NCBI GenBank assembly: GCA_039586795.1
Contig: JBDHJS010000011.1
Span: 32,001-96,000 of the forward strand
Source of the DNA: Gemmatimonadota bacterium
Lineage (GTDB): Bacteria; Gemmatimonadota; Gemmatimonadetes; Palauibacterales; KS3-K002
Direction of reading: 5' to 3'
Length of the DNA stretch: 64,000 bases
In this document: positions 12,736 to 49,602 of the stretch, piece after piece
Layout of the letters: each line of letters opens with the position of its first letter
Position numbering within the stretch: the stretch's first letter is position 1
Made by a program: the position numbers and the translations under genes
The notes under the pieces: model-generated
Seen by the model: the letters and a program-made list of their open reading frames with translations, nothing else
What the model was told of the DNA's origin: nothing
The model's database searches: none

Positions 12736-12814
12736 TATCATACCATCCCTGGTTGAGGCTATCGCTATCTCACCAACCACCCATTTACAGCTTACCGCTT
12801 ACCGTCTACCGAAC

Positions 12815-34170: not shown

Positions 34171-34887
34171 TCACCAGCGTGATACGCTTGAAGATGGAGA
34201 AACCGAAAACTGTGGGACTGTCACATGGCAACTGAGGCATACAGGATTGGTGCTGGGATCCTTCAGCAGGTGGCCATCGGCCGAGCCGTGCAGTTGGTGG
34301 CATTCGGTGCAAGCCAGCGCCGAGTGGTTTTCCGGCGACGGCATCTCGGCTGCGTGGCATACCGTGCAGACGATGAGCTGCTCCACGGGATCCGGTATGA
34401 TATTCGGTCCGGGTGCGTGCGGTTCGTGACAGTCGACGCAACCGATCCCGTCAGCAAGGTTCGGCGCCGCGGTCAGCGGCGTGAACGTACCACCCAGCGA
34501 CTCCGGCGACGTCGTCAGGATACTCGGTGCGGCTCCGCTGTTGTAGTCGCCGAGGGGGTGGTCGTTGTCCAGGCTCGGCCCCAGGTAGCCCCCCACCGGA
34601 TTGGCGGTCGCAATGAACTCGGGCTGCTGATCGCGTAACGCCGTCGTCCAGTGACAGCGCAGACAGCTCTCGGAGCGGGCACCGAGGCCTGGCGTCTGGA
34701 TGACGGAGCTCGCGTTGGGATCGATCTTCAGCAGGTACGGCGCCTGGGTCGAGGGGTGGGCGGTGTGACAGAGCGAGCAGTTCCCGATCTCCGGGTCGAT
34801 CTCCGTGGGAACCTCCACGTGCTGACCGTTGAGCGGTCCTGCCACCGCAAAGAGGAGAGTAGCGGCAAAAGCGCCGGGACGCGTCAT
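34171..34887 (-). CDS. Exported hexaheme cytochrome c
   Basis: Signal peptide; CSLCH, CLRCH, CVDCH, CTVCH, CTECH, CLSCH; LDNDHP motif. Confidence 0.9.
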   Translation of the reverse strand: MTRPGAFAATLLFAVAGPLNGQHVEVPTEIDPEIGNCSLCHTAHPSTQAPYLLKIDPNASSVIQTPGLGARSESCLRCHWTTALRDQQPEFIATANPVGGYLGPSLDNDHPLGDYNSGAAPSILTTSPESLGGTFTPLTAAPNLADGIGCVDCHEPHAPGPNIIPDPVEQLIVCTVCHAAEMPSPENHSALACTECHQLHGSADGHLLKDPSTNPVCLSCHVTVPQFSVSPSSSVSRW

Positions 34888-34889
34888 CG

Positions 34890-36818
34890 TCAGAAGACCC
34901 TCGAGAATCGGAAGTAGAGTCTGTTCTGCCCGCTACTCGAGGAGTTGCTCCACATCAGGTGATCGTAGCGGCCTTCCAGCCTCATCAAACCGATTCTGAA
35001 CTCGGCGCCCAGGCCACCGCCGATGAACCTGCCGTGTATCGGCTTCAACCCGCGGCCCAGCTGCTGCGACCAATCGTAGGCGCTCAGCTGACCCGTGACC
35101 CGGAGACCCGGCATCGCGAACCACTCGAGCGCTGCTCGGCCCTGAAAGATGTCGTATCGCGTTTCGTTGCGGCGGGTGCTCCAATTGGCTCGCAGGCTCC
35201 CGTTGACCCTGGGGCCGAAGCGATAGCCGAAACCGCCAAACACCGAGAATATGTCCGTCGTGATCGGATCGAATCGATTCCGAACCCATTCCGCACCGGC
35301 GTCGAGTTGGCCGAACTGCGTCGGCGTCTGGAACTGGAGCCCCGTAGTCATGATCTGCGTCTCGAAGAAGACGATGACCGGATCGCTCTCCGTGGGCAGA
35401 TTCAGCGTGTTTCGATGATAGGCGCGGAAACTCCTGAACGTCAGGTCCAGCGAATACAGTACCTGGAAGAACTCGGCGCTGGCGCTAGGCAACAGATTGT
35501 AACGGTAGTCAACCAGTACGACGTCGCCCGCCTGAATCCGTCCGCCCGGCAACGCCACGAATTCCAAGTAGGGGCCGCTGGGAACTAGGCGATAGTCCAG
35601 CCCGTCTTCGTAGAGGATTGTCCCATCCTCGTTCGTCGCCCGAACACTGGTCGGATCCGGCTGGAATTGATCGAGCAGGAACCGCCGCGATTCGGTGATT
35701 TCATGTGGCTCACCCAGAGCCGTGCCGACACCGCCGCTCCCGACCTGCTGCGATCGCCAACGATAGCCGGCGGCACCACTCGCTTGGAGCAACGTCCCAA
35801 AGGGCAGCTGCGCATTACCACCAGCGTTGATATCGACCAGATAGTTCCGCATGCTGCCGCGATTGAAGTTTCGCCAGTCCCCGCGTCCGCTCACACCGAA
35901 GCTCAGCGTGCGTGATGCCTGGACCCGCTCACTGATCGCCGCGGTGTAGATGCGGTTGCGATCGAATGGTGTCTTCGAGTCGGCGACGCTCCACTGAAGG
36001 TTCGTGCTCACGTCCAACGTATGTCGGAGTACCGCCGCCTGACTGAACACGATCGACGTCGAGGGGAAGAACTGGTTTCTTCGGTCCCAGTACTGGAAGT
36101 TCGTAATTAGCGCGCTGCCCTTCCCCCAGCGCTGCCGGTTGTTCAACAACGCTCTATACCATTTTATGTCCTGGGGCCGCAGCAGGTCGTCCAACTCGAA
36201 CCGTTCCAGTGTGATGCGAGTCTTACTGCTCTGCGCATAGAGAACGGCGCGTTCCGACTTCTGGCGGCGCCGCATACCGCGGTCGAGACCAGCTGTGGTC
36301 AGAACGTCCGCCTCGGCCATCTGGAACTGTCCCGTGAACGTCATGTACGGCGTGCGAAGATCTCCACCCACCGTGAAGCCGCTGTTCTCTGCTTCGGCTC
36401 GCGTGCCGAAAATCCCACTGAAGTTGTCTCGCGTCCGGTAGGCCTGGACGAACATCGAAGCCGGCGCTCCGCTCAGCACCCGGATACCGCCGGACCCGAA
36501 CAACGCGTTGCGGGAGCCGGACTGGCGAACATCGCCGCTGCGCCAGGCAAGTTGGGATAGCGCGGGCCGGAAGTTGACATCGAACGAAAGCAGACGAGGG
36601 CTATAGATCGATCCGCGGACTCGGAGCAACAGTGATTCCCGCAACGCCTGGTTGGTGAAAGCGGGGACGCCGCGCCCGAACGATCGTTGTCCATCGTAAC
36701 CGAGCAGCAGTTCACCCTCCGGGCGGTCTACGCTGAACAGCCCTTGCCCTAGCGCGGAGTGGGCGAGTATCAGCGACGCGGCGGCCGCGATGCCCAGGGT
36801 GCACGCCCGGCGAATCAT
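34890..36818 (-). CDS. Large outer-membrane beta-barrel associated with multiheme cytochromes
   Basis: ATG at 36818 overlaps the upstream stop; signal peptide; amphipathic strands; ends FSRVF; paralog of 46638-48563. Confidence 0.82.
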   Translation of the reverse strand: MIRRACTLGIAAAASLILAHSALGQGLFSVDRPEGELLLGYDGQRSFGRGVPAFTNQALRESLLLRVRGSIYSPRLLSFDVNFRPALSQLAWRSGDVRQSGSRNALFGSGGIRVLSGAPASMFVQAYRTRDNFSGIFGTRAEAENSGFTVGGDLRTPYMTFTGQFQMAEADVLTTAGLDRGMRRRQKSERAVLYAQSSKTRITLERFELDDLLRPQDIKWYRALLNNRQRWGKGSALITNFQYWDRRNQFFPSTSIVFSQAAVLRHTLDVSTNLQWSVADSKTPFDRNRIYTAAISERVQASRTLSFGVSGRGDWRNFNRGSMRNYLVDINAGGNAQLPFGTLLQASGAAGYRWRSQQVGSGGVGTALGEPHEITESRRFLLDQFQPDPTSVRATNEDGTILYEDGLDYRLVPSGPYLEFVALPGGRIQAGDVVLVDYRYNLLPSASAEFFQVLYSLDLTFRSFRAYHRNTLNLPTESDPVIVFFETQIMTTGLQFQTPTQFGQLDAGAEWVRNRFDPITTDIFSVFGGFGYRFGPRVNGSLRANWSTRRNETRYDIFQGRAALEWFAMPGLRVTGQLSAYDWSQQLGRGLKPIHGRFIGGGLGAEFRIGLMRLEGRYDHLMWSNSSSSGQNRLYFRFSRVF

Positions 36819-37675
36819 CCCGATTCGGGCTCCTCCGATTCGAGTTCCGCGTGGCAGCGATTGCACTCCATCACCCCGAACGCCGTTGTGCCGTCGTGGC
36901 AGGCGCCGCACTGACGCCCGGTCTGAATCTCGTCCATCGTCACCTCGACGGCCCCAGCTTCCATCGCGAACGGCTCGGGATGGCAAGCGGAGCACTTGTA
37001 GCGAATCCGGTGCGACCAGTGCGGGAAGATCGACGGAGGTAGTGATGCCATGTTGCGGGCGTTGTCGCTTGTCGTATCACGCTGGAATACCAGGTCGGTC
37101 TCGAGCGCTGCCGTCATTCGACCTTCCGGCATCTTCATCTTCGAGTGGCAACGTTCGCAGGTCGGCACGCTAAACGCGACCGATCCGTGACAGACGCCGC
37201 AACTCTCGCCGCGATTGATCGCCGCCATGGATGTGCTATCGCCTCGGCTGCGGTAGATCGACGGATGACAGCTCTTGCAGTCCATCCACTCGACGTGCGC
37301 TGAATGGGGGAAGTACGTCTCCATGGCGCCGAAATAGTAGTCGAACCCAAAGCTCTCGCCGCCGGATTCCTCGGTTCCCGGAGGACCGGGGAGCGGGTCG
37401 ATGATCCCCTCCCGCACCGCGGCGACCCAATCGATGCCGCCTGCCGCATCCAACGGGAGCATGGCCAGCACCGTGTCAGGGTCCAGCGTCTCCTCGATCG
37501 GCAACGGCTGCCTCACCGTATCGACGAACTGGATGCCGGCCATCGCCTGAGAGGCCGACGGGTCCTCCGGCGCCGGCTCCGGGATGTCGAAGACAGTGGA
37601 GGCGACACTACAGCACCAGAAGACCAGCAGCCCGAGAGAAAGCCCGGGCGCCAACAGGCGACTCGACCGCTTCAC
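36815..37675 (-). CDS. Hexaheme cytochrome with two c7-type triheme domains, probable lipoprotein
   Basis: F.H..H....CxxCH...CGxCH...C.RCH occurs twice (6 CXXCH); IDWV motif; Cys follows a hydrophobic leader. Confidence 0.9.
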   Translation of the reverse strand: MKRSSRLLAPGLSLGLLVFWCCSVASTVFDIPEPAPEDPSASQAMAGIQFVDTVRQPLPIEETLDPDTVLAMLPLDAAGGIDWVAAVREGIIDPLPGPPGTEESGGESFGFDYYFGAMETYFPHSAHVEWMDCKSCHPSIYRSRGDSTSMAAINRGESCGVCHGSVAFSVPTCERCHSKMKMPEGRMTAALETDLVFQRDTTSDNARNMASLPPSIFPHWSHRIRYKCSACHPEPFAMEAGAVEVTMDEIQTGRQCGACHDGTTAFGVMECNRCHAELESEEPESG

Positions 37676-38781
37676 GAGCCGCTAACCTCGCCGTTCGACT
37701 TGGGCTCCACGCGCGCGTAGATCGAGACCTTGTCTGGACCGTACTGGTTGGTGACGATCACCAGGTAGTGCGCCTCCAAGCCCGGGTCTACCAGGTCCTG
37801 GAAGAGATGCAGGTTGTCGTAGTCGATCGTCACCTTGGCCGGCAGATACATCGTTCCGGGGCCCTGATAGGGACCGCCGAAGAACATCAGTAGGTCGCCC
37901 TCGTCGTTGAACATCTGGACATTCTGGAAGCCCGCGTCGACCACGTAGAGGATCCCTTCACGATCCACAGCGATCCCTTTCGGCCGAACGAACATCCCCC
38001 AGCCATTCCCGTATTTGCCAACCGACCGAACGAATTCGCCATCGAGTGTGTACACCTTGATTTTGAAGTCACCGAAGTCGCTAACGTACAGCTCGTCGTC
38101 GGTGATCCAGATGTTGGTGGGCTGGAAGACCGAGTTCGGACTGCCTTCCTCAACGTTGGGTAGGCTGGCGATCGGTTGCCGCGTCGCTTTGTCGAACGCC
38201 ACCACCCGGTGTCCGCGCAAATCGGCTACCCAGACACGATCCTCGGTGACGAACACGTCAACCGGAGTCACCATTTCCCCGTGTCCGAAAGCGCCCAGGA
38301 AAGCGCCCGTCGTATCGTACACCAGCACCTCACTGCGACCCACATCGGCAACGTAGAGCGTACCTTCGACAGGATCGGCAAAGCAGTTGATCGGCTTGGC
38401 GAACGCGCCCTGGCCACTGGGTGCCCAGACCTCGAACCTACCCTCGACGAAGTCGAGCACTTCAACGCCCGGTCGCATCGAGTCGCAGGTGTAGAGGCGG
38501 CCGTTCATCAACGTGGCGCCGTACGGCTTGACGATCGGTTCCCAGGCCTTCGTCTGGTTCTCGCCGGTCAGCGTTTGCAGGAAACCCGATCCGCTGCCCT
38601 TCTCGAAATCCTCCGAGCTACCGTAGCGGGCCAGAAACTGGATCCGCGCCGTATCCGGCGGCTCTGGAAAGACCATCGCTCGCTCCGGCTCCACATCTCC
38701 CGACGCACCCTTGGGCCCGCAACCCGTCACGGCTGCCAGCACCACGATCAGCATCGCCTGGATCCAGTGTCTCGTCTTCAT
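37672..38781 (-). CDS. NHL-repeat beta-propeller lipoprotein
   Basis: Lipobox VTGC, P.PPDT.RIQFL, FVRPKGIAVD, DAGFQNVQ, YLPA; GGAGG RBS. Confidence 0.9.
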   Translation of the reverse strand: MKTRHWIQAMLIVVLAAVTGCGPKGASGDVEPERAMVFPEPPDTARIQFLARYGSSEDFEKGSGSGFLQTLTGENQTKAWEPIVKPYGATLMNGRLYTCDSMRPGVEVLDFVEGRFEVWAPSGQGAFAKPINCFADPVEGTLYVADVGRSEVLVYDTTGAFLGAFGHGEMVTPVDVFVTEDRVWVADLRGHRVVAFDKATRQPIASLPNVEEGSPNSVFQPTNIWITDDELYVSDFGDFKIKVYTLDGEFVRSVGKYGNGWGMFVRPKGIAVDREGILYVVDAGFQNVQMFNDEGDLLMFFGGPYQGPGTMYLPAKVTIDYDNLHLFQDLVDPGLEAHYLVIVTNQYGPDKVSIYARVEPKSNGEVSGS

Positions 38782-38824
38782 CTCTGTATTCCTCCACCGC
38801 TTAGATAAGCCCACTTGTAAGTGA

Positions 38825-38851
38825 AGTGGGAGGGCGCGGAGCCCTCCCACT
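38825..38851 (-). terminator. Hairpin after OmcE-like gene 1 (attenuator or mRNA stabiliser)
   Basis: 11-bp stem AGTGGGAGGGC / GCCCTCCCACT; no U-tract. Confidence 0.6.
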
Positions 38852-38877
38852 CCGATTGCTGCTTCAGACTAAACTGA

Positions 38878-39579
38878 CTACCCCTTCGCGTGACACGTCG
38901 TGCAGATCTGATCCTGCGACTTCGGGATGTTGAGCGAATGGGGGTTGTTGAACTTGTTATGAACGTCGTGGCAGCTCGAGCACTGCAGCTGCCCACGGTC
39001 CAGCAACACTTCCTCCAGCGACCCAGAAACCACGTGGCCGTTGAAGGCGGTCAGATTCAGCGCCGTCGCCGAGGGCGCAACCAAGAACCCGTCGGCCGTC
39101 GCGAGAGCGTCGTCATACACGAACGAAATCGGATGGGCATGGCTCAAGTCACCATTCTGCGGATGCGGAACCGTGTAGGTCGGGTCCGCCGGCGCATACA
39201 TCGCGCCCCATCCGTACTGATCGACGCCAACCGTACCGTCATGGCAGCTCAGGCACAGAATCGCCGTGCCCGTCGGCTGACCCACGGTGGCCGCGCCGTC
39301 AAACGTCTCACTCTGAACGGCGTCGTACATCACATACGACGTGGTCGTCGACAGCTTGTGGAACCACAGCGGCTGGCCGACGCCCGGGGTGTGAGCGTTG
39401 TGGCACACCGTGCACATATCCTCGCCGCCCACGTTCCAGGTGCCCTCACCCGTGTCGTACGAGCTAGGATTGTAGTGTGTGACCCCGTCACTGAAGTCGT
39501 GCCCTGAGCCGGAGAACTGCGCCTGCGCCGGTGCGGCGACGAACAGCACAGCCAGCCCAATTAACCAGAGCTTCTTCAT
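38878..39579 (-). CDS. omcE: OmcE-like exported tetraheme cytochrome c (copy 1)
   Basis: Signal AQAQ, HDFS, CTVCHNAH, PLW, CLSCHDG, DLSHAHPISF, CSSCHDVH, terminal CTTCHAK; AAGGAG RBS. Confidence 0.75.
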   Translation of the reverse strand: MKKLWLIGLAVLFVAAPAQAQFSGSGHDFSDGVTHYNPSSYDTGEGTWNVGGEDMCTVCHNAHTPGVGQPLWFHKLSTTTSYVMYDAVQSETFDGAATVGQPTGTAILCLSCHDGTVGVDQYGWGAMYAPADPTYTVPHPQNGDLSHAHPISFVYDDALATADGFLVAPSATALNLTAFNGHVVSGSLEEVLLDRGQLQCSSCHDVHNKFNNPHSLNIPKSQDQICTTCHAKG

Positions 39580-39645
39580 TGTTTGGTCTCCTTTGGATCC
39601 CATTGCTGCGAGCCGGGTTCTGGTCGTTCCCGGCCCAGTTAAAAG

Positions 39646-39679
39646 TCCGGTTGGGGCTTAGTTACTTCCGGTTGGGGCT
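39646..39679. repeat. Tandem 13-bp direct repeat with 21-bp period in the OmcE-like gene 1 leader
   Basis: TCCGGTTGGGGCT at 39646-39658 and 39667-39679. Confidence 0.7.
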
Positions 39680-39964
39680 GACTACAACGGTCGTTTACAA
39701 CTTCCGTTTCAGTGCCTCTTCCGGCTCCTCCTTTCTTACTCGTCGGCCCGCAGATCTAACGGGGTCACGTTCCTTGATACACAACGGCGCCCGCCGGATC
39801 AGGTAGGGGGAGAGCGGTGCAATACGCATCCGTTGCCGCACAGCTCCCGAAACCGGGGGCGCCCTCAGCATGACAGGCCGCGAGTGGTCGTGGGTCCTCT
39901 CCGATGGCCCCGGCGTGCCACGCTCCCGGAGCCAAACCCATTTCCTGAATGGGCATTTCCTCAA

Positions 39965-39979
39965 GCAGATGTCGTACCA
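39965..39979 (-). promoter_or_regulatory. Candidate sigma54 (-24/-12) promoter for the left operon
   Basis: Minus strand TGGTACG-ACAT-CTGC(T); GG-N10-GC spacing. Confidence 0.55.
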
Positions 39980-40299
39980 ATCTGGGGTGGAAAGAACCAC
40001 GTGTCCCAAACCGTCCGATTGGCCAGCACCGTCCGTGTAAGGCTAACAAGAATAACTATTTAGAGAGATTGCCCTGAAGGTGCGATATGTCCCGGCGAAG
40101 CGAGGCGTTCATGCCACGTGTCGCCCTGCCTCAACGACGGCATCCGCGTTGTGGCAATACGTCACGTCGTATCAACAAGCGTTCTCGATAAGCGGTGTTG
40201 GTCAGCCCCACGGCCTGATATCACCTGACCAAAGACGTCGAGCCCCGACAGCTTGCGCTGTCGGGGCCCGCCCTCCACCCAGTCCTCGAACCAGAGGAT

Positions 40300-42219
40300 C
40301 TAGAACCTTCCTCCATCGCCGTGGCGGTGGCAGTTGTAGCAGTTTTCCTTGCCCGTCATCGAGCTGCGATCGTGACAGGTGTTGCACCACCACCCACCAC
40401 TAGTCAGGTCGGCCTTGTCCAGGTTGTTGGTGATTCCGTATTCCCACTCGGCGGCGCCTTTGCGATCCCAAAACGCCAGCGCGGTGTCATCCGGCGCCAT
40501 ACCCAGCGTCTGATCGAGAACTCGGAACAAGGTCGTCGTGCCTATGCCGGCGCTCTGGTCGATGATCACGTGATTCGAATGGCACGACCAACACGGCATC
40601 ACATCGCCTATGCCCCAGCCTATTCCGGCCCGCAGGTCCACACTCGAGCCGGTCCGAACTCCCATACCGTCGTTGACCCACGTCGTGCGGATGTTCGTGA
40701 TCGCCGTTGTCTGGTCCTGAACTGAGGACGGGAAGCTCCCATCATGACAGTCGAGACAGAATTCGCTGAGGATGTCTCCCGCCGACTGGTATGCCGTAAA
40801 ATACCAGTCCGTGCCGGGAATGTGGCCGTCGCTTGGATCGGGATCGATCAGGTACTTCTGCGCAGCGGTCAGCGTATGCGGATTATGGCAGTTCGTGCAT
40901 TCAATCTTCGCCCCGCTACGGGCCTGTGCTGGCTGCTGGATGTCGTGTCGATCATTCAGGTTCGCGTTTGACCCCAGGCCGGTAGCCGTTTGGACCCAGT
41001 TGATCGCCCGCGCGAACCCGGTCGCCAGGTCGGTGGTTGCCGGGCCATCGGAGTCATGACAGTCGAGACAGAAACCCTCTTCTTCTTCGGTCCGCGTCGT
41101 GGGGTCGGGCGCGACGTCCCCAGGGGCGAGTATTCTGGCCTTTTGCGACCCGTGGCTCGCATGACACCCGAAACTGCCATCGCCAAAGCAGCCAACGATG
41201 GCCGCCGACTGTTTGTGGGAGGCGGTAGTCCACGCCGAGGCGTCGATTAGCGGGCGAGTCAATCCATCCGAGAACGGGGCGAGCGTTCCGTTCGCGCCAT
41301 CTAGATCATGGCAAGAAACGCAGAACGCCTCCAGCTTCGCCGCCTCCGCCGACTGAGTTTGCGGGTCGCCCGTCAATATGTATACGGTCGTCGAATCATC
41401 CGCGTTCTTGAGGCGCACGTTACCCGCCTGGTGGGCGCTGAACTCGTGACAGACCAGGCAATCGCCATCCACGTACGACGCCCCGACATGGTTGCTGGCC
41501 CAGGACATCTCCGGAACGATCGGGCGGCGACTGTTCGGCCCGCTGGTGCCCTGCCCGCCCGTGTCGTGGCAGCTCCCGCACGGTCCGCCCCCGGCGAATC
41601 CGCTCTCGTGAGTGTGACAATCGGTGCAGGTCCGCCCGACTTCGTGCGTATGGTCACTGACGTCCGGAAGGTTCAGCCCGTTCTGATGGTTACTCGTCTC
41701 CGTATGGCACGCCTCGCACACACCATCGTAATCACCGTCTCCATCCTCGTCGCCGTCGGCGAACGAATGAAGCGATGGCTGCCCCGCATCGGTCCCGCGA
41801 CTCGTAAACGACACGGGCAGATCACCACTCACCGGCGTCGTCATCATCTCGCGGATCATCGATAGGTTCGCGGCCGTCTCTCCTTCATGGTCGTGACAGT
41901 CCCAACAGCCCGTTGCCGCTCGGCCGAACTCGGTGTGTCGGGCTCCGTTGTGTACCTCGAACGGACCCTTCGGAACATCTACCCAGACTCCATCCCGGTC
42001 GACCTGCGCCGGACCGGCATCGCTGTGGCACGACCAACAGAGATCTTCAACGACGTCGAATTCTCGCAGCGCGCTGAACGAGCCGCCGTGCAGGTCATGG
42101 CAAAAGCTGCAGTTGTGACTGATCTGCGCGTGTGCCGTCGCCGATTCCTGAAGCGCCGGAATGACGGGCGCGATGAGGCTCCACCCCACGAGTCCCAAGA
42201 GCCAGGCGATCGGCCTCAT
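40300..42219 (-). CDS. Exported large multiheme cytochrome c (14 CXXCH plus one CX7CH)
   Basis: 14 canonical motifs counted by hand; CFGDGSFGCH; signal peptide ending AHA; DGDEDGDGDYD loop. Confidence 0.92.
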   Translation of the reverse strand: MRPIAWLLGLVGWSLIAPVIPALQESATAHAQISHNCSFCHDLHGGSFSALREFDVVEDLCWSCHSDAGPAQVDRDGVWVDVPKGPFEVHNGARHTEFGRAATGCWDCHDHEGETAANLSMIREMMTTPVSGDLPVSFTSRGTDAGQPSLHSFADGDEDGDGDYDGVCEACHTETSNHQNGLNLPDVSDHTHEVGRTCTDCHTHESGFAGGGPCGSCHDTGGQGTSGPNSRRPIVPEMSWASNHVGASYVDGDCLVCHEFSAHQAGNVRLKNADDSTTVYILTGDPQTQSAEAAKLEAFCVSCHDLDGANGTLAPFSDGLTRPLIDASAWTTASHKQSAAIVGCFGDGSFGCHASHGSQKARILAPGDVAPDPTTRTEEEEGFCLDCHDSDGPATTDLATGFARAINWVQTATGLGSNANLNDRHDIQQPAQARSGAKIECTNCHNPHTLTAAQKYLIDPDPSDGHIPGTDWYFTAYQSAGDILSEFCLDCHDGSFPSSVQDQTTAITNIRTTWVNDGMGVRTGSSVDLRAGIGWGIGDVMPCWSCHSNHVIIDQSAGIGTTTLFRVLDQTLGMAPDDTALAFWDRKGAAEWEYGITNNLDKADLTSGGWWCNTCHDRSSMTGKENCYNCHRHGDGGRF

Positions 42220-43163
42220 TTCGCAGCGACCCCCGGATAGACCTTCACCGATGCGCTGCGATTGCTCACCACTAAGACGTCGCCATTCTTCGTGATCAGT
42301 ACGTCGGTGGGCACTCTCAGCTCGGGGCGGCCGCCGATCTCGCCCGTCAACTCCTTCGTTGCCCGGTCAAAGACCAACACCGTGCCCAACAAGGCATCCG
42401 CGACATAGATCCTGCCCCGGTCGTCCACCGCCAGACCCTGCGGTCGAGAGAACCCTCCCGGACAACTCATGCCGCAGCTCACCTCACCAGGGATCTGATC
42501 GACATGGCGACCATCATAGTCGAAGATCTTGATCGAGGCGGCGCCGCCATCCACTCCCCAGTCGCTCACCAGCAACTCGTTCCGAGCGCCGTTCACGGCG
42601 ATCCCCATCGGCGTGGCCAGCTGCTCAGGGCCGCTTCCCGGACTCGAGATCACGCGCTGCAAACCGCCCAGCTCGTCAAACACCCTCACTTCTCGAGCGC
42701 GCCCATCGAGTACGAATACCAGCCCCTGGCCGTCGTCTGCCGCCAGGTCGATCGGATACTCGACCGCTCCGGCGCCGAACGTGCCCGTTGCGCTTCCAGT
42801 TGTCGTCGAGAAGATCTCTACCGTTCGACGGGTACCGTTGCCCACGAAGATGCGATCGCCCAGAGCGACGACGCCCAACGCCTGGCCCGAGACGGCTATG
42901 CCGCGGGCTGGGGTCTGCGAGGTGGGATCGATCTCCACCACCAGGTCCAGGCGACTGTCCGTCACCAGGACTTGTCCACCTGAAGTCAGCGCGAGCCGCA
43001 ACGGCGATCTAAGAGTTATCGCGCCGAGCAAGCCGAAGGTGACTTCCTCCCCGCCTTCTTCACCCCCGGTGGGCGTTCGTTCCTCTCTCCAACAGCCGTG
43101 CGTGAATAACAGCATGCTGGCGAGCAGGCTGAACAGCACTCCACGGAAGGAAAAGACTCTCAT
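42216..43163 (-). CDS. NHL-repeat lipoprotein
   Basis: Lipobox THGC, FSRPQGLAVDDRGRIYVAD, P.GIAV repeats. Confidence 0.88.
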   Translation of the reverse strand: MRVFSFRGVLFSLLASMLLFTHGCWREERTPTGGEEGGEEVTFGLLGAITLRSPLRLALTSGGQVLVTDSRLDLVVEIDPTSQTPARGIAVSGQALGVVALGDRIFVGNGTRRTVEIFSTTTGSATGTFGAGAVEYPIDLAADDGQGLVFVLDGRAREVRVFDELGGLQRVISSPGSGPEQLATPMGIAVNGARNELLVSDWGVDGGAASIKIFDYDGRHVDQIPGEVSCGMSCPGGFSRPQGLAVDDRGRIYVADALLGTVLVFDRATKELTGEIGGRPELRVPTDVLITKNGDVLVVSNRSASVKVYPGVAAK

Positions 43164-43208
43164 CGGTATGCTACCCTCGATTTACGACCGTACTCCGATA
43201 GGAATTTG

Positions 43209-43223
43209 GCAAGTAGCCTGCCA
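43209..43223 (-). promoter_or_regulatory. Candidate sigma54 promoter for the NHL + 14-heme unit
   Basis: Minus strand TGGCAGG-CTAC-TTGC, about 45 nt upstream of the ATG at 43163. Confidence 0.65.
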
Positions 43224-43606
43224 AGGAAGAAAGGAAGCGGAGTGCCATAAAAGGGAGAACGATTATTAATAGCGGTTCTGGGCACGAGAATGGACCGTAA
43301 TGAGCCACGTCGAGACATGGTGAGTCGTTATGGCACACCGTTGCTTGACTAACGGGGCATCTGTGTACTCAACGTTACTTATATACAGGTGCGTCCATGG
43401 TCCGCGCTTGAGAATGATAATTATTCGCGTTCGATGTTCTTCCTGAAAGTTGTTCGCGATTTGCTTGTAGAGAGCGCGTTCTGCAACGACTCCCAGTCGA
43501 CGAGGAGCGGTCAATTCGTCGGAACTTGCAGAGCCGATAGGGTCAAGATGTCCATATCGCTAGCCATAATCGTGAAAACGATCGCAGAGCTACTTCAACT
43601 TTCAAT

Positions 43607-43621
43607 CGGAACGACTTTTGC
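43607..43621 (+). promoter_or_regulatory. Candidate sigma54 promoter for the right operon
   Basis: CGGAACG-ACTT-TTGC(A); GG-N10-GC spacing. Confidence 0.5.
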
Positions 43622-43892
43622 ACTCTGTCGCAGCACTCCCCTCCGCCTATGGCGACATGTCTGAAGCCGTGAATCCCTGGAAACAACTGAGAGTCTAGCA
43701 GGACAAGCCCTAATTGTAGGGCAAGCGCTGTTTACAGGTCCCCCGCTCCGCCCCGCCAGGTCTGTCTCCCGCCGATTCCCCTGGCCCTGTTACAGCAGTT
43801 TGGACATTAGCCCGTGAGTACCGACCACTGAGACTCGACGCGGGACGCCGCGGGGCTCACGGATGATCAAACCCCGAGTTGAGGAGGGACCA

Positions 43893-44537
43893 ATGAAACG
43901 GTTGTTCAGCCTGATCACCGCCTTCATCCTGGCGGCGGCGACGACGGCGAGCGCTCAGCAGATTTCGGGTAGCGCGCACGACTTCAGCGCGGCTGCTTGG
44001 AACAGTACGGGAGAGATCTGCATCGTCTGTCACGCGCCGCATAACAATCAGAGCCCTGCCGGTGAACTAATTTGGAACCGCACTGCCAGTGCCGCGTCCT
44101 ACACGATGTACTCGAACACTAGCGGGACATTCCAGGCGTCTGCCACGATCGCGGCGACGCCAAACGCGGAGTCCAAGGTCTGCCTGAGTTGCCACGACGG
44201 CACTGTCGCACTCGAGTCATTTGGCGGCAACGGTGCCGTAACGACGACGGTGATGGGCGACGTCAACGCAGCAGCGGACGTCGGGTCGGACCTGTCGGAC
44301 GACCATCCGATCTCGTTCGACTACACGAACGCGCTTGCGACAAGCGACGGCGATCTGGCTACTCCGGGCGACAACGGTACCGCTCCCGATGGCAACATGC
44401 CGTTGTTCGGCGCGACCTATCGGATGGAGTGCGCCACGTGCCACGACGTGCACAACGATGTACCGGTTGGCAATGCCAGCCTGCTTTATGTGGACAACGC
44501 GGCCAGCGCGCTCTGTCTTACTTGTCACACCAAGTAG
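43893..44537 (+). CDS. omcE: OmcE-like exported tetraheme cytochrome c (copy 2)
   Basis: Signal ASAQ, HDFS, EICIVCHAPHN, IWNR, YTMYS, SKVCLSCHDG, GSDLSDDHPISF, MPLF, MECATCHDVH, SALCLTCHTK; GAGGAGG RBS. Confidence 0.82.
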   Translation: MKRLFSLITAFILAAATTASAQQISGSAHDFSAAAWNSTGEICIVCHAPHNNQSPAGELIWNRTASAASYTMYSNTSGTFQASATIAATPNAESKVCLSCHDGTVALESFGGNGAVTTTVMGDVNAAADVGSDLSDDHPISFDYTNALATSDGDLATPGDNGTAPDGNMPLFGATYRMECATCHDVHNDVPVGNASLLYVDNAASALCLTCHTK

Positions 44538-44600
44538 CACACGCATAGGGCGGAGCGTCATCGAGAGTTCGAGTCGCCAGTTACCGCCATACGAGAGGCC

Positions 44601-44622
44601 AGGGGGCGCTCCGGCGCCCCTT
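44601..44622 (+). terminator. Hairpin after OmcE-like gene 2
   Basis: AGGGGGCGC-TCCG-GCGCCCCTT. Confidence 0.55.
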
Positions 44623-44654
44623 CGCCTTAACGCTCTAGACCAACAACTCGATCG

Positions 44655-45773
44655 ATGAACAGCCACCGACTGATCCCAGTAGTGCTACTCGCCGCTGCCG
44701 CTGGAACACTGCTGACGGCGTGCTCCTCGACTGCTCCAACACCGGAGCTAACCCAGCCGCGAGAGCTGATCGTCTACCCCACCCCACCGGACACACCACG
44801 TATCCAATTCTTGACACGTTATTCGACTTCAGCTGACATCGAGCCGGAGCGACGCAGGTCGATTTGGGAGTCGATTGCGGGTGAAGACGATTCGGCGAAC
44901 GAAGAGAAGCAGATCGTCAAGCCTTACGGCGTGGCCATGGCGCAGGGCAGAATCTACGTCTGTGACACGGGCGCCATCGCGGTTGATATCATAGACATCC
45001 CGGCGCAGTCGTTGTCTCGTTTCCAGCCCCGCAGTTTTGGCAAGCTCAGTAAGCCGCTTGGCTGCTTCGCAGACGAGTCCGACGGCTCACTATTCGTCGC
45101 CGATGCTGATCGCCAGCAAGTTGTCGTTTATGGGAACGACGGATCCTATCGAGCCAGCTTCGGAGAGCGAGAGAGCATCCGACCGAGTGCCGTATTCGTC
45201 GTCGGTGACAGTATCTTCGCGGCCGATCTGAACGGACAGCGCGTCGCGGTCTACGCGCGCAGCGACCAGCGACTGCTGGGCTTCATTCCAGCCGACACGA
45301 CCGACCCGGCGGCAAGGCTATTCGCTCCCACCAACCTGTTCGTCACTAACGATCACGTGTACGTGACGGACTTCGGGTCCTTCCAGGTGAAGATCTATGA
45401 CCGCAACGGTCGGTTCGTTCGGACACTTGGGCGCTATGGGTCCGGGCTTGGACAGTTCGTTCGCCCCAAGGGCGTGGCCGTCGATCGCAACAGCAACGTC
45501 TACGTCGTCGATGCGGGCTTCGAGAACGTCCAGGTGTTCGATGCAGAGGGCAAGCTGCTGATGTTCTTTGGCGGCCCATACGAGGGCCCGGGCGACCTGT
45601 ACCTGCCGGCCGGGATCACCATCGACTATGAGAACGTCGACCTGTTCCGACACCTCGTTCATCCCGGTTTCCAACTCAAGTATCTCGTCCTCGTAACCAG
45701 CCAATACGGTCCCGACAAAGTCAACGTCTACGGCTTCATCGGCCCCGAGGAGACCCCGTCCCATGCGCCTTGA
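44655..45773 (+). CDS. NHL-repeat beta-propeller lipoprotein (paralog of 37672-38781)
   Basis: Lipobox LTAC, PTPPDTPRIQFL, FVRPKGVAVD, QYGPDKV. Confidence 0.9.
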   Translation: MNSHRLIPVVLLAAAAGTLLTACSSTAPTPELTQPRELIVYPTPPDTPRIQFLTRYSTSADIEPERRRSIWESIAGEDDSANEEKQIVKPYGVAMAQGRIYVCDTGAIAVDIIDIPAQSLSRFQPRSFGKLSKPLGCFADESDGSLFVADADRQQVVVYGNDGSYRASFGERESIRPSAVFVVGDSIFAADLNGQRVAVYARSDQRLLGFIPADTTDPAARLFAPTNLFVTNDHVYVTDFGSFQVKIYDRNGRFVRTLGRYGSGLGQFVRPKGVAVDRNSNVYVVDAGFENVQVFDAEGKLLMFFGGPYEGPGDLYLPAGITIDYENVDLFRHLVHPGFQLKYLVLVTSQYGPDKVNVYGFIGPEETPSHAP

Positions 45774-46641
45774 TACAGGCAAAACGCTCCTCGCCATCTG
45801 TCTTACCGTTGGCGCCCTTTCATGCCGCTCGGCCGCCGAATTGTTCCTCGACATCTCCGAGCCGCCGGGGAACGAGCAATATGCGCCGGCTGCTAACGTC
45901 AGTCAGTCGCAGAGCGTTATGTTAGCGGTTCCAACCGACACCGCCCGACCCCCGATCGAGAGTGTGGACGGCATGGACTCTGTGCTGGTCATGCTGCCAC
46001 AGGCGCCCGACGGAAGCATCGACTGGGTTACGGCGATTCGCGATACGGTAATCCGACCTCGGAACGCACCGCGAGGAGTTGGATCTGTTCGGGAGTCACT
46101 CAGTTTCGATTTCTACTTCGGTGAATTCGAGACCTACTTCCCCCATTCCGCCCACGCGGAGTGGATGGAATGCACCAGTTGTCACCCAACCATCTATCGC
46201 CGCCGCGGTGCCTCAACATCGATGAAGGAGATCGGGGAAGGCCAGTCCTGCGGTCGCTGCCACGGAAGTGTTGCATTCTCCACTGCCGCCTGCGAACGCT
46301 GCCACACGGCAATGAAGTTGCCGGAAGGTCGCCAAAAGCCGAATCTCGGTGCCGTCTACACGTTCTCGCGCTCGGAGACCGCAACCAATATCGCGACCGA
46401 CTCCGTCTTCCCGCCCGCGGTGTTCTCGCATGGCTTCCACCGTATACGCTATACCTGCGCGGCTTGTCACAACGATCTGTTTCCCATGGCGCGCAGCGCG
46501 CCCGGAACGGTGACGATGAAGTCGATTCAAAATGGTGAGGCATGCGGGACGTGTCATAACGGTTCGACCGCGTTCGGCGTTCTGCAGTGCGGGCTCTGCC
46601 ATCAGAAGGTCGAAAGCGACTCCGAGGGCAGTGGACCGTGA
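45763..46641 (+). CDS. Hexaheme double c7-type cytochrome lipoprotein
   Basis: Lipobox ALSC; CTSCH, CGRCH, CERCH, CAACH, CGTCH, CGLCH; IDWV motif. Confidence 0.9.
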   Translation: MRLDTGKTLLAICLTVGALSCRSAAELFLDISEPPGNEQYAPAANVSQSQSVMLAVPTDTARPPIESVDGMDSVLVMLPQAPDGSIDWVTAIRDTVIRPRNAPRGVGSVRESLSFDFYFGEFETYFPHSAHAEWMECTSCHPTIYRRRGASTSMKEIGEGQSCGRCHGSVAFSTAACERCHTAMKLPEGRQKPNLGAVYTFSRSETATNIATDSVFPPAVFSHGFHRIRYTCAACHNDLFPMARSAPGTVTMKSIQNGEACGTCHNGSTAFGVLQCGLCHQKVESDSEGSGP

Positions 46642-48563
46642 ATCGTCTGCAGTTCTTGACGGTTTGTGGACTTGCGGCGCTACTCACCGCCGGAGCGCGA
46701 GCGTCACCGGCACAGCACGTCATCAAGCTATCGCGGACCGGCGGTATCGTTGGATTGGAGTTTGATGGCTACAGTCTTCAGAACTCCTCTGGCTTCCACG
46801 ATGGCCAACGGACCTTTCGCGAATACGTCAATCTTCAAATAACAGGGTCAGTACTCGACCCCCGGGTCCTGCTCTTCGACGTCGGCCTTAGACCTCGAAT
46901 AGAACAGACCTCGTGGAACGCCACCTACGAGTCATCGAGTGGCGGCTCCACGAACCTCGACGCCCGACTGGCCGCCCACCTGTTCAGCCGCGGCAAGATC
47001 TCGCTTCAGGCAGAGGCGATGCGCCTCTCGAACAACGCGCAAGTGCGCTTTGATGAAGAACAGAGCGTTTCCTATCAAGAGCTGCGACTGCGCCTCAACA
47101 CCAGGTTCAGGCCCCTTCCCCTGTGGATCGAGCTTCGAAACCTGCAAAACAACCTCGATTTCTCTCGACCCCAGGGCGTCAGTCTCATGCGTGACGAGCA
47201 GAGTCGCTCTGTTTGGATGCGTGCTCAGAACAGCAAGACCTTTCTTGAATACCAGCACGTTGATTTCTCGGACAACCTGTACGACCGGAGAGTCGTCACC
47301 GACAGGGCTACCGCCACGCACCATATGGGTTGGGGCAAAGGTAGCAGTCTACGCTCGATTCTCACTTATTCTGATCGAGCGGGCGTTGGTCCGTTTCGCC
47401 GATTCGCTTGGAACGAATACGTCAACATCCGGCACACGCTTGACGTTCAGACTGATCTACGCTTCCGACTCTTCGACCAGGTTAGCCGCGGCCTGAAATC
47501 GAAAGGCTGGTTCGTCGATCTTCGACCGCAAACCAGACTGGCCAGAGAAGCCCACGTCGCGTTGAGTGGCCTGGCGGAACGGCGACAGTATGCGCTCGTA
47601 GACTTTCGACGTTATGAACTGAAACCGATGGCCGACGCCGCTTTCGATTTGCCTGCCGGCATGAGACTCATCGCCTCCGGCGCGGTGGGTTATCGCTGGC
47701 AAGTCCAGTCGGCCGACGAAGCATCCGTCGGAGACGTGCTGGATGAACGGCACGAGGTCGACCAGTTCGGTCGGTTCATCCTCGATGAGATTTCGGTGAT
47801 CTCGAGTTCCGTGCTCATCACCAGCGAAGACCGTTCCGTCGTTTTCGAGGAGGGGATCGACTACCAGATCTTTGAGCAGGGTCCGCGCACCGAAGTACTG
47901 TCCCTACCCGGAGGTCGTATACAGCCGCAGGACATTGTTCTGGTAAGCTATAGTTTCCGCCTCATCGATGATCTGAGCTCGGACGCTCTACTCGCCAACT
48001 ACAACGTCAATCTCCAGCTTGGCCCACTCGCCTTCTTCAACCATATGAACCTGGTGGATCCAGCTCAGCAGAGTTCACCCAGGGCTCCAGGTTCGCCAGG
48101 CTATTACCAGAATTTGCAGGCGGGAGTTGCCTATCAAAGTCGTACTCCTTTCGGATCGGTAGACGTCAGGGCCGAGTACGATGCGACAACCACCGATGCG
48201 ATCACGTATCAGATGTTCCGCGTACGGGCAACGTTGTCGGCACGACTGCTTAGAGGGATGGGCAGCACCGTCGGCGTGGCATGGCAGAACGGCCTTGCTG
48301 ACCGCGGGCGTCCAATCTCGCGCCTCGATGCAAATGCAGCGGTCAACTGGAGTCCTATCCCCCGCCTCGCACTCGTTGGCGCCCTGACGGCCTACAGGGG
48401 ACACGCCGATTTTCAACGAGATACGTTCCTCGGCTTCGGTCTCGGTGCCGAGTGGAGCCTGCGGCGACTTCGCATGTTCGCCAGGTACGACTATCGGTCA
48501 TGGGACACCCGGACTCAGCAACAGGAAAGCCGTATCCGAACCGGCATAGCACGATTCTTCTGA
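46638..48563 (+). CDS. Large outer-membrane beta-barrel (paralog of 34890-36818)
   Basis: GTG overlaps the upstream TGA; signal peptide; GS..PR.L.FDV..RP and WGKGS shared with the paralog; ends ARFF. Confidence 0.82.
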   Translation: MNRLQFLTVCGLAALLTAGARASPAQHVIKLSRTGGIVGLEFDGYSLQNSSGFHDGQRTFREYVNLQITGSVLDPRVLLFDVGLRPRIEQTSWNATYESSSGGSTNLDARLAAHLFSRGKISLQAEAMRLSNNAQVRFDEEQSVSYQELRLRLNTRFRPLPLWIELRNLQNNLDFSRPQGVSLMRDEQSRSVWMRAQNSKTFLEYQHVDFSDNLYDRRVVTDRATATHHMGWGKGSSLRSILTYSDRAGVGPFRRFAWNEYVNIRHTLDVQTDLRFRLFDQVSRGLKSKGWFVDLRPQTRLAREAHVALSGLAERRQYALVDFRRYELKPMADAAFDLPAGMRLIASGAVGYRWQVQSADEASVGDVLDERHEVDQFGRFILDEISVISSSVLITSEDRSVVFEEGIDYQIFEQGPRTEVLSLPGGRIQPQDIVLVSYSFRLIDDLSSDALLANYNVNLQLGPLAFFNHMNLVDPAQQSSPRAPGSPGYYQNLQAGVAYQSRTPFGSVDVRAEYDATTTDAITYQMFRVRATLSARLLRGMGSTVGVAWQNGLADRGRPISRLDANAAVNWSPIPRLALVGALTAYRGHADFQRDTFLGFGLGAEWSLRRLRMFARYDYRSWDTRTQQQESRIRTGIARFF

Positions 48564-49390
48564 TGGCTCGATCGACTCGACCGCTGAATCTGCTGCTGAC
48601 CCTGGCCCTGCTATCTGCTGTCCAGGTGCCTGCGTTCGCCCAGCACGACGACATCTCCGTCACCACTCCAGAGAGGTCATCAAGTGGCTGCGTGTTGTGT
48701 CACGCGTCGCACGATGCCGGGCCAACCGTCAAGAGCCTACGCATTGATCCCTTGGTCGCATCCGAATACTCAGCCGCCGGCCTCTCTCCCGCATCTCTCA
48801 GTTGCCTGCGATGTCATTCCACGTGGAGCGCCCGGCTGCGACAACCGGAGTACGTCAACTTGGGAGTGGCTCCATCCCCAGGCGGAAAGCTCTTCGGGAC
48901 CTATCTGCAGGACGATCATCCGGTAGGCGAAGCTTCGCGCCCCGGGCTACCCATGAGGGGAGACGACGCGGATCCATGGTCTAGTTCCGTCGGGATTGGA
49001 AGCGTCGTTCCGAGCCCCGGGACCCACGTACCCGAGTGCAACACCTGCCACGACCCCCATTCTCGCAACGGGCTTCTCATCGCACCCGAGGAGGAGCATT
49101 TCTTCTGCGGCGCGTGCCACGACAGGACTCAGGCCTCATCGACCACGCATACAAACGTCCCCTGCACTGGCTGTCACGCCCTCCACAACGCATCCTCGAC
49201 CAAACTTCTGGCGGAACATGATGTCGACCGGCTCTGCCTCTCCTGTCACACTGCCGCTGGCGTTCCCTCCCTGTCACGCAACTACTCCGAACGCCGAGCC
49301 GAGCTACTAAGCATGCTGGCAGTTCCACGAACGAACATGCATGGCGAGTCGCGTTCCGATCGCTGCACGGGCTGCCACCTGCCTCACTGA
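48563..49390 (+). CDS. Exported heptaheme cytochrome c
   Basis: ATG at 48563; CVLCH, CLRCH, CNTCH, CGACH, CTGCH, CLSCH, CTGCH; LQDDHPVG motif. Confidence 0.9.
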   Translation: MARSTRPLNLLLTLALLSAVQVPAFAQHDDISVTTPERSSSGCVLCHASHDAGPTVKSLRIDPLVASEYSAAGLSPASLSCLRCHSTWSARLRQPEYVNLGVAPSPGGKLFGTYLQDDHPVGEASRPGLPMRGDDADPWSSSVGIGSVVPSPGTHVPECNTCHDPHSRNGLLIAPEEEHFFCGACHDRTQASSTTHTNVPCTGCHALHNASSTKLLAEHDVDRLCLSCHTAAGVPSLSRNYSERRAELLSMLAVPRTNMHGESRSDRCTGCHLPH

Positions 49391-49526: not shown

Positions 49527-49602
49527 GCCCCGGTCGTTAAAGGGTCCTTTTGGAAGACGTTTCATTGGTCCCTCCTCAACGGCGGCCGGGGCCTATTCTT
49601 TT
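49527..49602 (+). ncRNA. Candidate antisense sRNA / 3'-UTR hairpin complementary to the RBS-start of OmcE-like gene 2
   Basis: 49558-49580 is the exact reverse complement of 43878-43900. It sits in a long imperfect stem (GCCCCGGTCG / CGGCCGGGGC) followed by TATTCTTTT. Confidence 0.5.

Follow-up and report, generated by a model that had tools for sequence, protein, structure and literature searches.

We analysed a 64,000-nucleotide stretch of DNA, called the window below, from the genome of a Gemmatimonadota bacterium (assembly GCA_039586795.1, contig JBDHJS010000011.1, positions 32,001 to 96,000), which contains an island of multihaem cytochrome genes between window positions 34171 and 49390. 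The island consists of twelve tightly packed genes encoding 47 CXXCH motifs in 4515 amino acids, against an expectation of 0.08 from the Cys and His content of the proteins themselves and of 0.012 from the genome-wide composition. On the minus strand, the order along the window is L5 (6 CXXCH), L4 (beta-barrel), L3 (6), L2 (NHL propeller), L1 (4), C2 (14), and C1 (NHL propeller); on the plus strand, it is R1 (4), R2 (NHL propeller), R3 (6), R4 (beta-barrel), and R5 (7). The L and R genes form two outward-facing five-gene modules with the same gene order, and the NHL and 14-haem pair C1-C2 lies between them, L1 being separated from C2 by 720 bp and C1 and R1 being divergent across 729 bp. When the proteins of the island were compared with each other, each L protein paired best with its R counterpart, at identities of 34% (tetrahaem), 46% (NHL), 49% (double-c7 hexahaem), 27% (barrel), and 32% (hexahaem and heptahaem). 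Adjacent genes mostly overlapped by 1-11 nt, with the exception of a gap of 96-117 nt on the 3' side of each tetrahaem gene and of 2 nt between L4 and L5. Searches against Pfam and NCBIfam confirmed the paired-CXXCH and c7 cytochromes and the NHL propellers. The starts of L1, L2, L4, R1, R4, and R5 were refined by eye using ribosome-binding sites and overlaps (positions in Table 1); apart from these start codons, the twelve-gene layout, the haem counts, and the identical order of the two modules were all as described in the initial annotation of the window. The G+C content was 0.58-0.63 in the island and 0.58-0.66 in the remaining window, so that the island is not set apart by base composition.

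The tetrahaem proteins L1 and R1 were compared with all chains in the PDB using phmmer. R1 matched 9YUQ at 4.7e-30 and 7TFS at 5.2e-26, the latter nearly end to end (residues 18-224 against 11-232), and L1 matched the same two entries at 1.4e-18 and 1.4e-13; no further significant match to either tetrahaem was found among the PDB chains. The entry 7TFS, which itself lists 'Cytochrome c', is presumably the filament of Geobacter sulfurreducens OmcE. The entry 9YUQ is an OmcE bundle of Desulfuromonas soudanensis (PMC13712944). When R1 and L1 were aligned with 25 database relatives, eight histidines proved invariant in 27 of 27 sequences, four of them in CXXCH motifs and four elsewhere, and they lined up with histidines of 7TFS. 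This arrangement of eight histidines is the haem-ligation pattern given for OmcE (PMC13712944). As judged from the sequences, L1 and R1 are full-length tetrahaems of the OmcE family with all haem ligands kept, in agreement with the proposal in the initial annotation that they are homologues of OmcE. In Desulfuromonadia, the omcE cluster encodes OmcE, a large beta-barrel, two beta-propeller lipoproteins, and two multihaem cytochromes (PMC13712944). The statement in the initial annotation that OmcE adjoins NHL and cytochrome genes in Geobacter was correct, and a large barrel is to be added to it.

The barrel proteins L4 and R4 had no significant family in Pfam or NCBIfam, the sole listing being a sub-threshold phage tail tube (E 0.0074). 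An AlphaFold2 model of R4, made with a 56-row alignment built from fetched loci, had a predicted local distance difference test (pLDDT) score of 91.7, a predicted template modelling score of 0.79, and 28 long strands, which supported the earlier assignment of the ~640-aa proteins as beta-barrels. Comparison of the model with solved structures by Foldseek and VIA-align returned generic large outer-membrane barrels only (FimD, LptD, MtrB, and TonB-dependent receptors), with TM scores of 0.2-0.4, Z scores of 13-16, and partial alignments. According to the model, the ~641-aa proteins are outer-membrane barrels of no solved family. A small beta insert was observed between strands 17 and 18 of R4 (residues ~364-441, window ~47727-47960), and it is here that conservation across phyla is highest in the barrel family, in a motif that contains the one invariant Tyr of the alignment. 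A profile made from L4 and R4 detected 62 barrel open reading frames (ORFs) in 89 loci scanned, among them 49 of 76 loci from outside the Gemmatimonadota, and it reached the omcE-type cluster of a Geobacter metagenome-assembled genome (MAG) at E 2.5e-16. By this profile, L4, R4, and the barrels that omcE-type clusters encode in other phyla form one family.

The cytochromes L5 and R5 also showed a relation to OmcE. The first ~190 residues of the R5/L5 family aligned with the whole OmcE-like domain (hhalign probability 98.8, E 1.2e-16), and the seventh haem, absent from L5, was kept in R5 and in all 14 Gemmatimonadota homologues. An AlphaFold2 model of R5, made from a 15-row alignment, was unusable (pLDDT 45.4), and prediction of a complex of R4 residues 22-641 with R5 residues 27-275 scored 0.00 in two runs, which is evidence neither way. 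L3 matched TIGR04257 in two stretches (128.7 bits) and R3 matched it at 117.8 bits; the NHL matches of R2 and C1 in Pfam scored 52 and 61 bits.

Relatives of the tetrahaem were found far beyond this genome. At E <=1e-5, 2367 of 2990 candidates were relatives of R1, and at least 623 R1 relatives were encoded by species-representative genomes (623 of 643 pattern matches, among the matches listed). The best 80 of these relatives gave 78 loci for the analysis of gene context, which came from Bacteroidota, Calditrichota, Ignavibacteria, Verrucomicrobiota, Planctomycetota, several proteobacterial classes, Nitrospirota, Acidobacteriota, a Geobacter MAG, and two Gemmatimonadota MAGs. The usual order in other phyla was tetrahaem, NHL, small cytochrome, barrel, second NHL, and large cytochrome. 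The small-cytochrome slot was readable in 36 loci and was occupied by a pentahaem in 28, a nonahaem in 6, and a double-c7 hexahaem in 2, both of the latter in Gemmatimonadota; six pentahaems and nonahaems that were scanned proved to be DmsE-like paired-CXXCH proteins. The large cytochrome had 11 CXXCH in 46 of 49 cases and a length of ~570 aa, of which the first ~210 residues were OmcE-like. Comparison of the C2 family with these undecahaems gave an hhalign E value of 4.8e-25 over a shared stretch of ~200 residues (C2 351-550 against undecahaem 248-433, 168 aligned columns), and the pair C1-C2 is thus the counterpart of the second NHL and undecahaem of other phyla. The OmcE-like head that is carried by the undecahaem elsewhere is, by alignment, found on the heptahaem (R5/L5) here. 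Because the undecahaem is absent, C2 shares only ~200 residues with it, and the OmcE-like head resides in R5/L5, we call the cluster a variant.

To define the unit within the phylum, we used a search with L4, which found the barrel in 22 of 401 Gemmatimonadota genomes and 13 of 147 genera, the genome of the window counted. Two barrel matches in one genome occurred in the window's genome only among the 401. For 20 of these genomes, the surroundings of the barrel were taken to a length of at most 20 kb, and one named MAG locus was added, which gave 21 loci in which the neighbourhood was read. The double-c7 gene stood beside the barrel in 21 of 21 loci and the heptahaem was present in 14. A C1-like NHL gene followed by a C2-like cytochrome gene was found in 11 of 21, where the cytochrome had 13-14 haems in nine and a short 4-5-haem form in two (L095 and L101); the C2 homologues of nine Gemmatimonadota loci were 36-51% identical to C2. 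Two near-identical loci (L110 and L111, in genomes G391 and G098) had the classic NHL and undecahaem instead. In two genomes, all seven genes were collinear on one strand. These results indicated that the conserved Gemmatimonadota unit is seven genes, not five, and that several stages of the large-cytochrome slot exist within the phylum. The initial annotation had considered each five-gene operon self-contained. This view was not upheld: the conserved unit includes the NHL and 14-haem pair, of which the window has one, placed as in a single-copy relative (described below), so that the modules are not self-contained.

In the literature searched, we found no description of an OmcE-type cluster in Gemmatimonadota or in this layout, and hence no earlier account of the exact module in this lineage, which the initial annotation had named as grounds for refutation; the supplementary homologue list and Fig. 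4D of PMC13712944 may name further phyla. The part of PMC13712944 used here gives omcE homologues in that gene context for five phyla, and Gemmatimonadota is not among them. The phylum is included among the taxa with FeGenie iron-cycling genes in the portion of PMC8478452 consulted. The initial annotation had nevertheless overstated the novelty of the island, which is a variant of the published omcE cluster with tetrahaem relatives in many phyla.

Table 1. Genes and sequence features of the multihaem cytochrome island, in window coordinates
Feature	Position	Strand	Description
L5	34171..34887	-	238-aa hexahaem; OmcE-like tetrahaem head and two C-terminal haems
L4	34890..36818	-	642-aa predicted outer-membrane beta-barrel; signal peptide, C-terminal ...RVF; ATG overlaps L3 stop (ATGA); homologous to R4
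L3	36815..37675	-	286-aa hexahaem with two c7-type trihaem domains; N-terminal Cys-containing signal, probable lipoprotein (by eye)
L2	37672..38781	-	369-aa NHL beta-propeller lipoprotein; lipobox VTGC (by eye)
Stem-loop, L1-L2 gap	38824..38852	-	12-bp G+C stem; z -0.90, not beyond shuffles; RNA contig ends at 38859, just before it
L1	38878..39579	-	233-aa OmcE-family tetrahaem; PDB homology, 8 invariant His
Sigma-54-like GG-N10-GC	39964..39979	-	Upstream of L1; positional hint
C2	40300..42219	-	639-aa 14-haem cytochrome
C1	42216..43163	-	315-aa NHL beta-propeller, second propeller of the cluster; overlaps C2 by 4 nt
Sigma-54-like GG-N10-GC	43208..43223	-	Upstream of C1; positional hint
Sigma-54-like GG-N10-GC	43607..43622	+	Upstream of R1; positional hint
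R1	43893..44537	+	214-aa OmcE-family tetrahaem; exactly 8 His (4 in CXXCH, 4 distal)
Stem-loop, R1-R2 gap	44595..44628	+	G+C-rich; z -3.04, 0/200 shuffles fold as well
R2	44655..45773	+	372-aa NHL beta-propeller lipoprotein; lipobox LTAC (by eye)
R3	45763..46641	+	292-aa hexahaem lipoprotein with two c7-type trihaem domains; lipobox ALSC (by eye)
R4	46638..48563	+	641-aa predicted outer-membrane beta-barrel; modelled
R5	48563..49390	+	275-aa heptahaem; OmcE-like tetrahaem head (residues ~20-188) and C-terminal trihaem tail
23-nt inverted copy	49558..49580	-	Perfect match to 43878-43900, 168-190 nt past the R5 stop

The relative that bears on the origin of the two modules is G305, the only other sampled genome of the host's family. 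Its genes for a DPP-IV peptidase, a beta-galactosidase, and an SSF transporter encode proteins 68%, 70%, and 83% identical to those of the window, and these flanking genes enclose a single five-gene module with C1-C2 divergent from it, an arrangement that matches the right half of the window in relative order; an L module is absent. The extra left module of the window sits between C2 and the SSF transporter gene. This synteny ties the central pair to the right module, and the symmetry of gene order is thus not a functional symmetry. In a tree of the five concatenated proteins (17 modules, 1752 columns; quick search version), L and R were sisters with a Shimodaira-Hasegawa-like approximate likelihood ratio (SH-aLRT) support of 99, the backbone being supported at 80-94, and a tree of the c7 proteins also paired L with R, at 89. 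The approximately unbiased (AU) test rejected a grouping of R with the G305 module (delta lnL 33.2, p 0.0017). The branches of L and R were long (1.16 and 1.09 against a median of 0.63). The two modules shared no DNA-level repeat beyond short matches in coding motifs, which is no more than expected at 27-49% protein identity. Since G305 has a single copy and L and R are sisters, we concluded that the ancestral locus was R1-R5 with C1-C2, and that L1-L5 is an old inverted duplicate that arose within this lineage. Both copies diverged fast after the duplication, and in L5 the seventh haem was lost afterwards. A contig of one DNA run joined 37370 (in L3) to 43936 (in R1) with 20 other letters between and a depth of 4.5; either chimeric assembly or a different gene arrangement in a related strain may account for this junction.

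We also searched for traces of the island in public sequencing runs. Near-identical DNA was present in sediment metagenomes, where nine runs from eight studies contained at least a fifth of the sampled words; the window itself may derive from the top run, and the runs with small shares (X10-X19) were left out of the coverage given below. Three DNA runs (three studies) contained exact pieces across both modules, one of them with depth in 29 of 30 bins. In a sediment RNA library, two contigs with 0 differences together covered 38859-39890, which is all of L1 and 311 nt upstream of it, and depth over the rest of the island in the same run was 0-0.7, with the exception of the R1 bins; parts left uncovered in this RNA run prove nothing. 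No exact RNA contig was found for R1 or the other island genes, and the depth at R1 consisted of 36-40-nt pieces with 2-4 differences, from other organisms. Strong and selective transcription of L1 is supported by these contigs directly, though weakly.

Possible stem-loops were found in the gap after both tetrahaem genes (Table 1). When the same gap was folded in six relatives, a strong stem was obtained in five (L023, L051, L094, L095, and L096, including the Geobacter MAG), three of them at z <=-2; two other relatives (L098 and L099) have no such gap, their spacing being 2 nt. Stem-loops at this place would fit a subunit gene that is expressed above the level of the accessory genes. Three correctly oriented sigma-54-like motifs lie upstream of L1, C1, and R1, and those of L1 and R1 share GGnACGAC..T.TGC. 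The GG-N10-GC motif was not enriched in the window (19 matches, 23 expected), and only the positions of the three are suggestive. A scan of the island for sigma-70 promoters and terminators gave 2 promoter-like matches against 3.4 expected and 8 terminator-like matches against 10.5 expected, and the RNA fold of the 3' region of R1 was unremarkable (z -0.65). One arm of the 23-nt inverted repeat in Table 1 (43878-43900) comprises the ribosome-binding site of R1, its ATG, and five further bases, and the other (49558-49580) heads a 30-codon ORF on the minus strand. By a rough estimate, the chance of a 23-nt match in 16 kb is ~1e-6; no comparable 23-nt inverted repeat was found in the loci of 6 relatives. 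The repeat could be an anti-ribosome-binding-site element, an antisense RNA for R1, or a duplication scar.

The phylum of the host, given as probably Gemmatimonadota in the initial annotation, was corroborated by GyrB, encoded on another contig of the same genome. This protein was 82-92% identical to many proteins and 73-76% to those of Longimicrobiales, and every organism-named match among the best 120 listed was from Gemmatimonadota or Gemmatimonadetes, Palauibacterales included. The absence of ccm/res and quinol-dehydrogenase genes from the island, also noted initially, held for the 36 ORFs of the window that were scanned. Elsewhere in the host genome, which is 97.8% complete with 0.17% contamination, CcmF/CcmC-type maturation genes, NapC/NirT-family genes, and rpoN were present; ResB was not found in that genome, which has the Ccm-type genes instead. 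The genome contains 39 ORFs with at least 3 CXXCH and 319 motifs in all. Other dense multihaem clusters were observed outside the window, with ORFs of 17, 18, 17, and 13 CXXCH on contig C13, of 19 on C53, and of 21 on C80, suggesting that the host holds more candidate electron conduits than the island. Within the window, a NosZ-type N2O reductase (535-2484), two tandem DUF3604 paralogues (10804-14740, E ~1e-245 each), and a glycyl-radical enzyme with its activase (24392-27669) were also encoded; these genes suggest a facultatively anaerobic lifestyle in sediment.

As a whole, the region is best explained as the Gemmatimonadota version of the omcE-type outer-membrane electron-transfer cluster, similar in its parts to the uet cluster and with a putative path to an extracellular wire, and we consider this reading likely. 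The island represents a variant of a known and widespread cluster and not a novel type of system. Its phylum is not named in the literature searched, and its duplicated layout was unique among the 401 genomes. The uet cluster (uetABCDEFGHIJ) of 'Ca. Tenderia electrophaga' and other Tenderiales encodes, according to the part of the preprint used here, a tetrahaem (UetA), a peptidyl-prolyl isomerase (PPIase; UetB), a 28-strand barrel (UetC), c7 trihaems (UetD/E/G), a cupredoxin (UetF), two NHL proteins, and an undecahaem (UetJ). The preprint proposes that this cluster serves electron uptake and takes no position on polymerisation (bioRxiv 10.1101/2022.05.06.490989).

By the omcE-type reading, a quinol dehydrogenase of the host and periplasmic carriers, encoded elsewhere, would deliver electrons to the double-c7 lipoprotein, which would sit on the inner side of the outer membrane. 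The electrons would cross the barrel through a cytochrome lodged in it, for which the candidate is the OmcE-headed heptahaem encoded straight after the barrel, and would enter an extracellular polymer of the tetrahaem, whose subunits may be joined by histidine-haem ligation as in Geobacter OmcE. The gap with a possible stem-loop after the tetrahaem gene might allow the tetrahaem to be made in excess over the other parts. The NHL propellers and the 14-haem protein are conserved partners of the cluster; a chaperone function of the NHL protein, a relay function of the c7 protein, and two nanowire types are proposals of the initial annotation. With two diverged modules, the cell probably makes two different wires or wire-and-socket sets, which may differ in potential, partner, or regulation, and both modules may draw on the single NHL and 14-haem pair. 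The flow of electrons could be directed out of the cell, with Fe(III)/Mn(IV) or partner cells as acceptors, or into it, with reduced minerals as donors.

Several observations weigh against this reading. Polymerisation of L1 and R1 is predicted by homology alone, and OmcE-like tetrahaems are widespread and not all need form wires (PMC13712944). The window lacks both the undecahaem, present in 46 of the 49 clusters from other phyla, and the pentahaem that precedes the barrel in 28 of 36 loci, and for this reason electrons may cross the membrane by another route than in the model organisms. The R5 model gives the proposed role of the heptahaem no structural support, and the uet clusters, similar in make-up, are proposed to take electrons up. 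The RNA evidence comes from one run of assembled contigs, and RNA libraries can hold DNA; of the eight post-tetrahaem gaps folded, the two of the window counted, only four reached z <=-2. As for the duplication, the pairing of L with R could owe something to long-branch attraction: the group for the AU test was named after the tree had been seen, the long branches share the pull of the model, and the tree came from a quick search.

The island might instead be a porin-cytochrome conduit without a wire, running inward, in which the tetrahaem is a monomeric surface or periplasmic cytochrome and the barrel holds a short haem chain. Such a conduit could take up electrons from Fe(II) minerals or partner cells and feed, for example, the respiration of N2O or O2. 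The parts list of c7 trihaems, 28-strand barrel, two NHL proteins, and tetrahaem matches that of uet, which is proposed for uptake, and uet genes are also reported in some iron-oxidising Gallionella (PMC10734462); the NosZ-type reductase in the same window and the presence of the DNA in sediment metagenomes agree with this idea. We nevertheless regard it as unlikely, because L1 and R1 resemble proven filament formers more closely than would be expected of a generic cytochrome, with full-length homology and the eight ligand histidines kept, and because the set-off first gene, and L1 as the one gene with exact RNA contigs, agree with the production of a subunit in excess. Direction and polymerisation are also separate matters, and a wire could run inward as well.

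Two further alternatives concern the left module. It could be a redundant copy on its way to loss, so that the cell has one working system and not two; the missing seventh haem of L5, present in R5 and 14 homologues, the lack of an NHL and 14-haem pair of its own, and the long branches of both copies could be read in this way. The five L genes are, however, intact, with signal peptides and coupled starts, every haem ligand is kept in L1, and L1 is the one gene with exact-match contigs in the RNA library. Identities of 27-49% combined with open reading frames indicate long retention under selection, and we therefore hold decay of the left module to be quite improbable. Slightly less probable still is that the left module came from another Gemmatimonadota lineage by transfer instead of arising by duplication in this one. 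The patchy occurrence of the barrel in the phylum (22 of 401 genomes, 13 of 147 genera), the higher BLAST scores of several relatives' proteins against L than against R, and the weakly supported backbone of the tree (80-94) would be consistent with transfer. Against it stand the sister relation of L and R (SH-aLRT 99 in the concatenated tree, 89 in the c7 tree), the AU test, which rejected R with its syntenic relative, the unremarkable G+C content, and the lack of mobile-element genes flanking the module.

Within the omcE-type reading, a more specific arrangement can be imagined, to which we give a small chance only. R5 and L5 would be the socket of the wire, whose head accepts the first OmcE subunit through a histidine-haem link and whose trihaem tail leads through the 28-strand barrel to the double-c7 lipoprotein. 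The undecahaem would have been re-partitioned into the heptahaem and the 14-haem protein, the two diverged sets would share one 14-haem and NHL component, making this genome a natural experiment, and the translation of R1 would perhaps be controlled by the 23-nt copy as an anti-ribosome-binding-site element. If this were true, one cell would have two electrically distinct wires.

The anchoring, starting, and electron feeding of cytochrome nanowires are stated as an open question in PMC13712944 (mBio 2026), where the secretion and assembly of OmcE wires are called unanswered and the barrel of the omcE cluster is named as a putative secretion pore or anchor. As a variant of a described and widespread cluster, the locus alone does not change what is known. 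It extends the carriers of the system to Gemmatimonadota, a common phylum of soil and sediment in which evidence for extracellular electron transfer is scarce. Its re-partitioned parts list separates the OmcE-like head from the rest of the large cytochrome, which is useful for experiment, and long-diverged paralogous modules that share one component can help to tell wire-specific from generic parts.

Among known systems, Desulfovibrio ferrophilus IS5 (DFE_448-451 and DFE_461-465) has multihaem cytochromes co-expressed with NHL proteins that are thought to stabilise an outer-membrane complex (PMC5815863). Both systems pair cytochromes with NHL proteins, a likeness drawn from the description, and no OmcE-type subunit or barrel is described in the part of that source used here. 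MtrCAB and the porin-cytochrome (Pcc) systems of Geobacter follow the same logic as the island, in that a large barrel is encoded alongside periplasmic and surface multihaem cytochromes. MtrB (6r2q_B) was among the Foldseek matches of R4, as a generic match (E 1.6e-7, TM 0.32), and L5 weakly matched MtrA (6r2q_A, 2.7e-5). The island differs from them in having 28 strands instead of 26 in the barrel and in its OmcE-type subunit and NHL propellers, which are absent from MtrCAB/Pcc. An MtrCAB-type complex was considered and rejected, since no MtrA/DmsE decahaem was found in the island (best TIGR03508 score 50.2 bits, cut-off 192.2) and the barrel belongs to no Pfam or NCBIfam family.

The likeness to the uet cluster is one of make-up and comprises the tetrahaem, a predicted 28-strand barrel, c7 trihaem domains, two NHL proteins, and a large cytochrome of extracellular type. 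In contrast to the three single c7 proteins of uet, the c7 domains here are fused pairwise in one lipoprotein, and the large cytochrome has 14 haems instead of 11. No PPIase or cupredoxin domain was found in the 12 island proteins; the Rotamase_2 and cupredoxin matches of the window belong to other genes.

Also among the closest known systems is the omcE cluster of Desulfuromonadia, which likewise has an OmcE-family tetrahaem and two beta-propeller lipoproteins, a large barrel belonging to the family of L4 and R4, and additional multihaem cytochromes. The locus of the Geobacter MAG has the order tetrahaem, NHL, cytochrome, barrel, NHL, and large cytochrome. The corresponding parts in the window are the predicted barrel R4, the propellers R2 and C1 as putative lipoproteins (lipoboxes by eye), and three further cytochromes per full set (hexahaem, heptahaem, and 14-haem); the L module has only one NHL protein, L2, of its own. 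The island differs from the omcE cluster in that a double-c7 hexahaem and not a pentahaem precedes the barrel, an OmcE-headed heptahaem follows it, a 14-haem cytochrome takes the place of the undecahaem, a glycosylation block is lacking, and five of the seven genes are duplicated.

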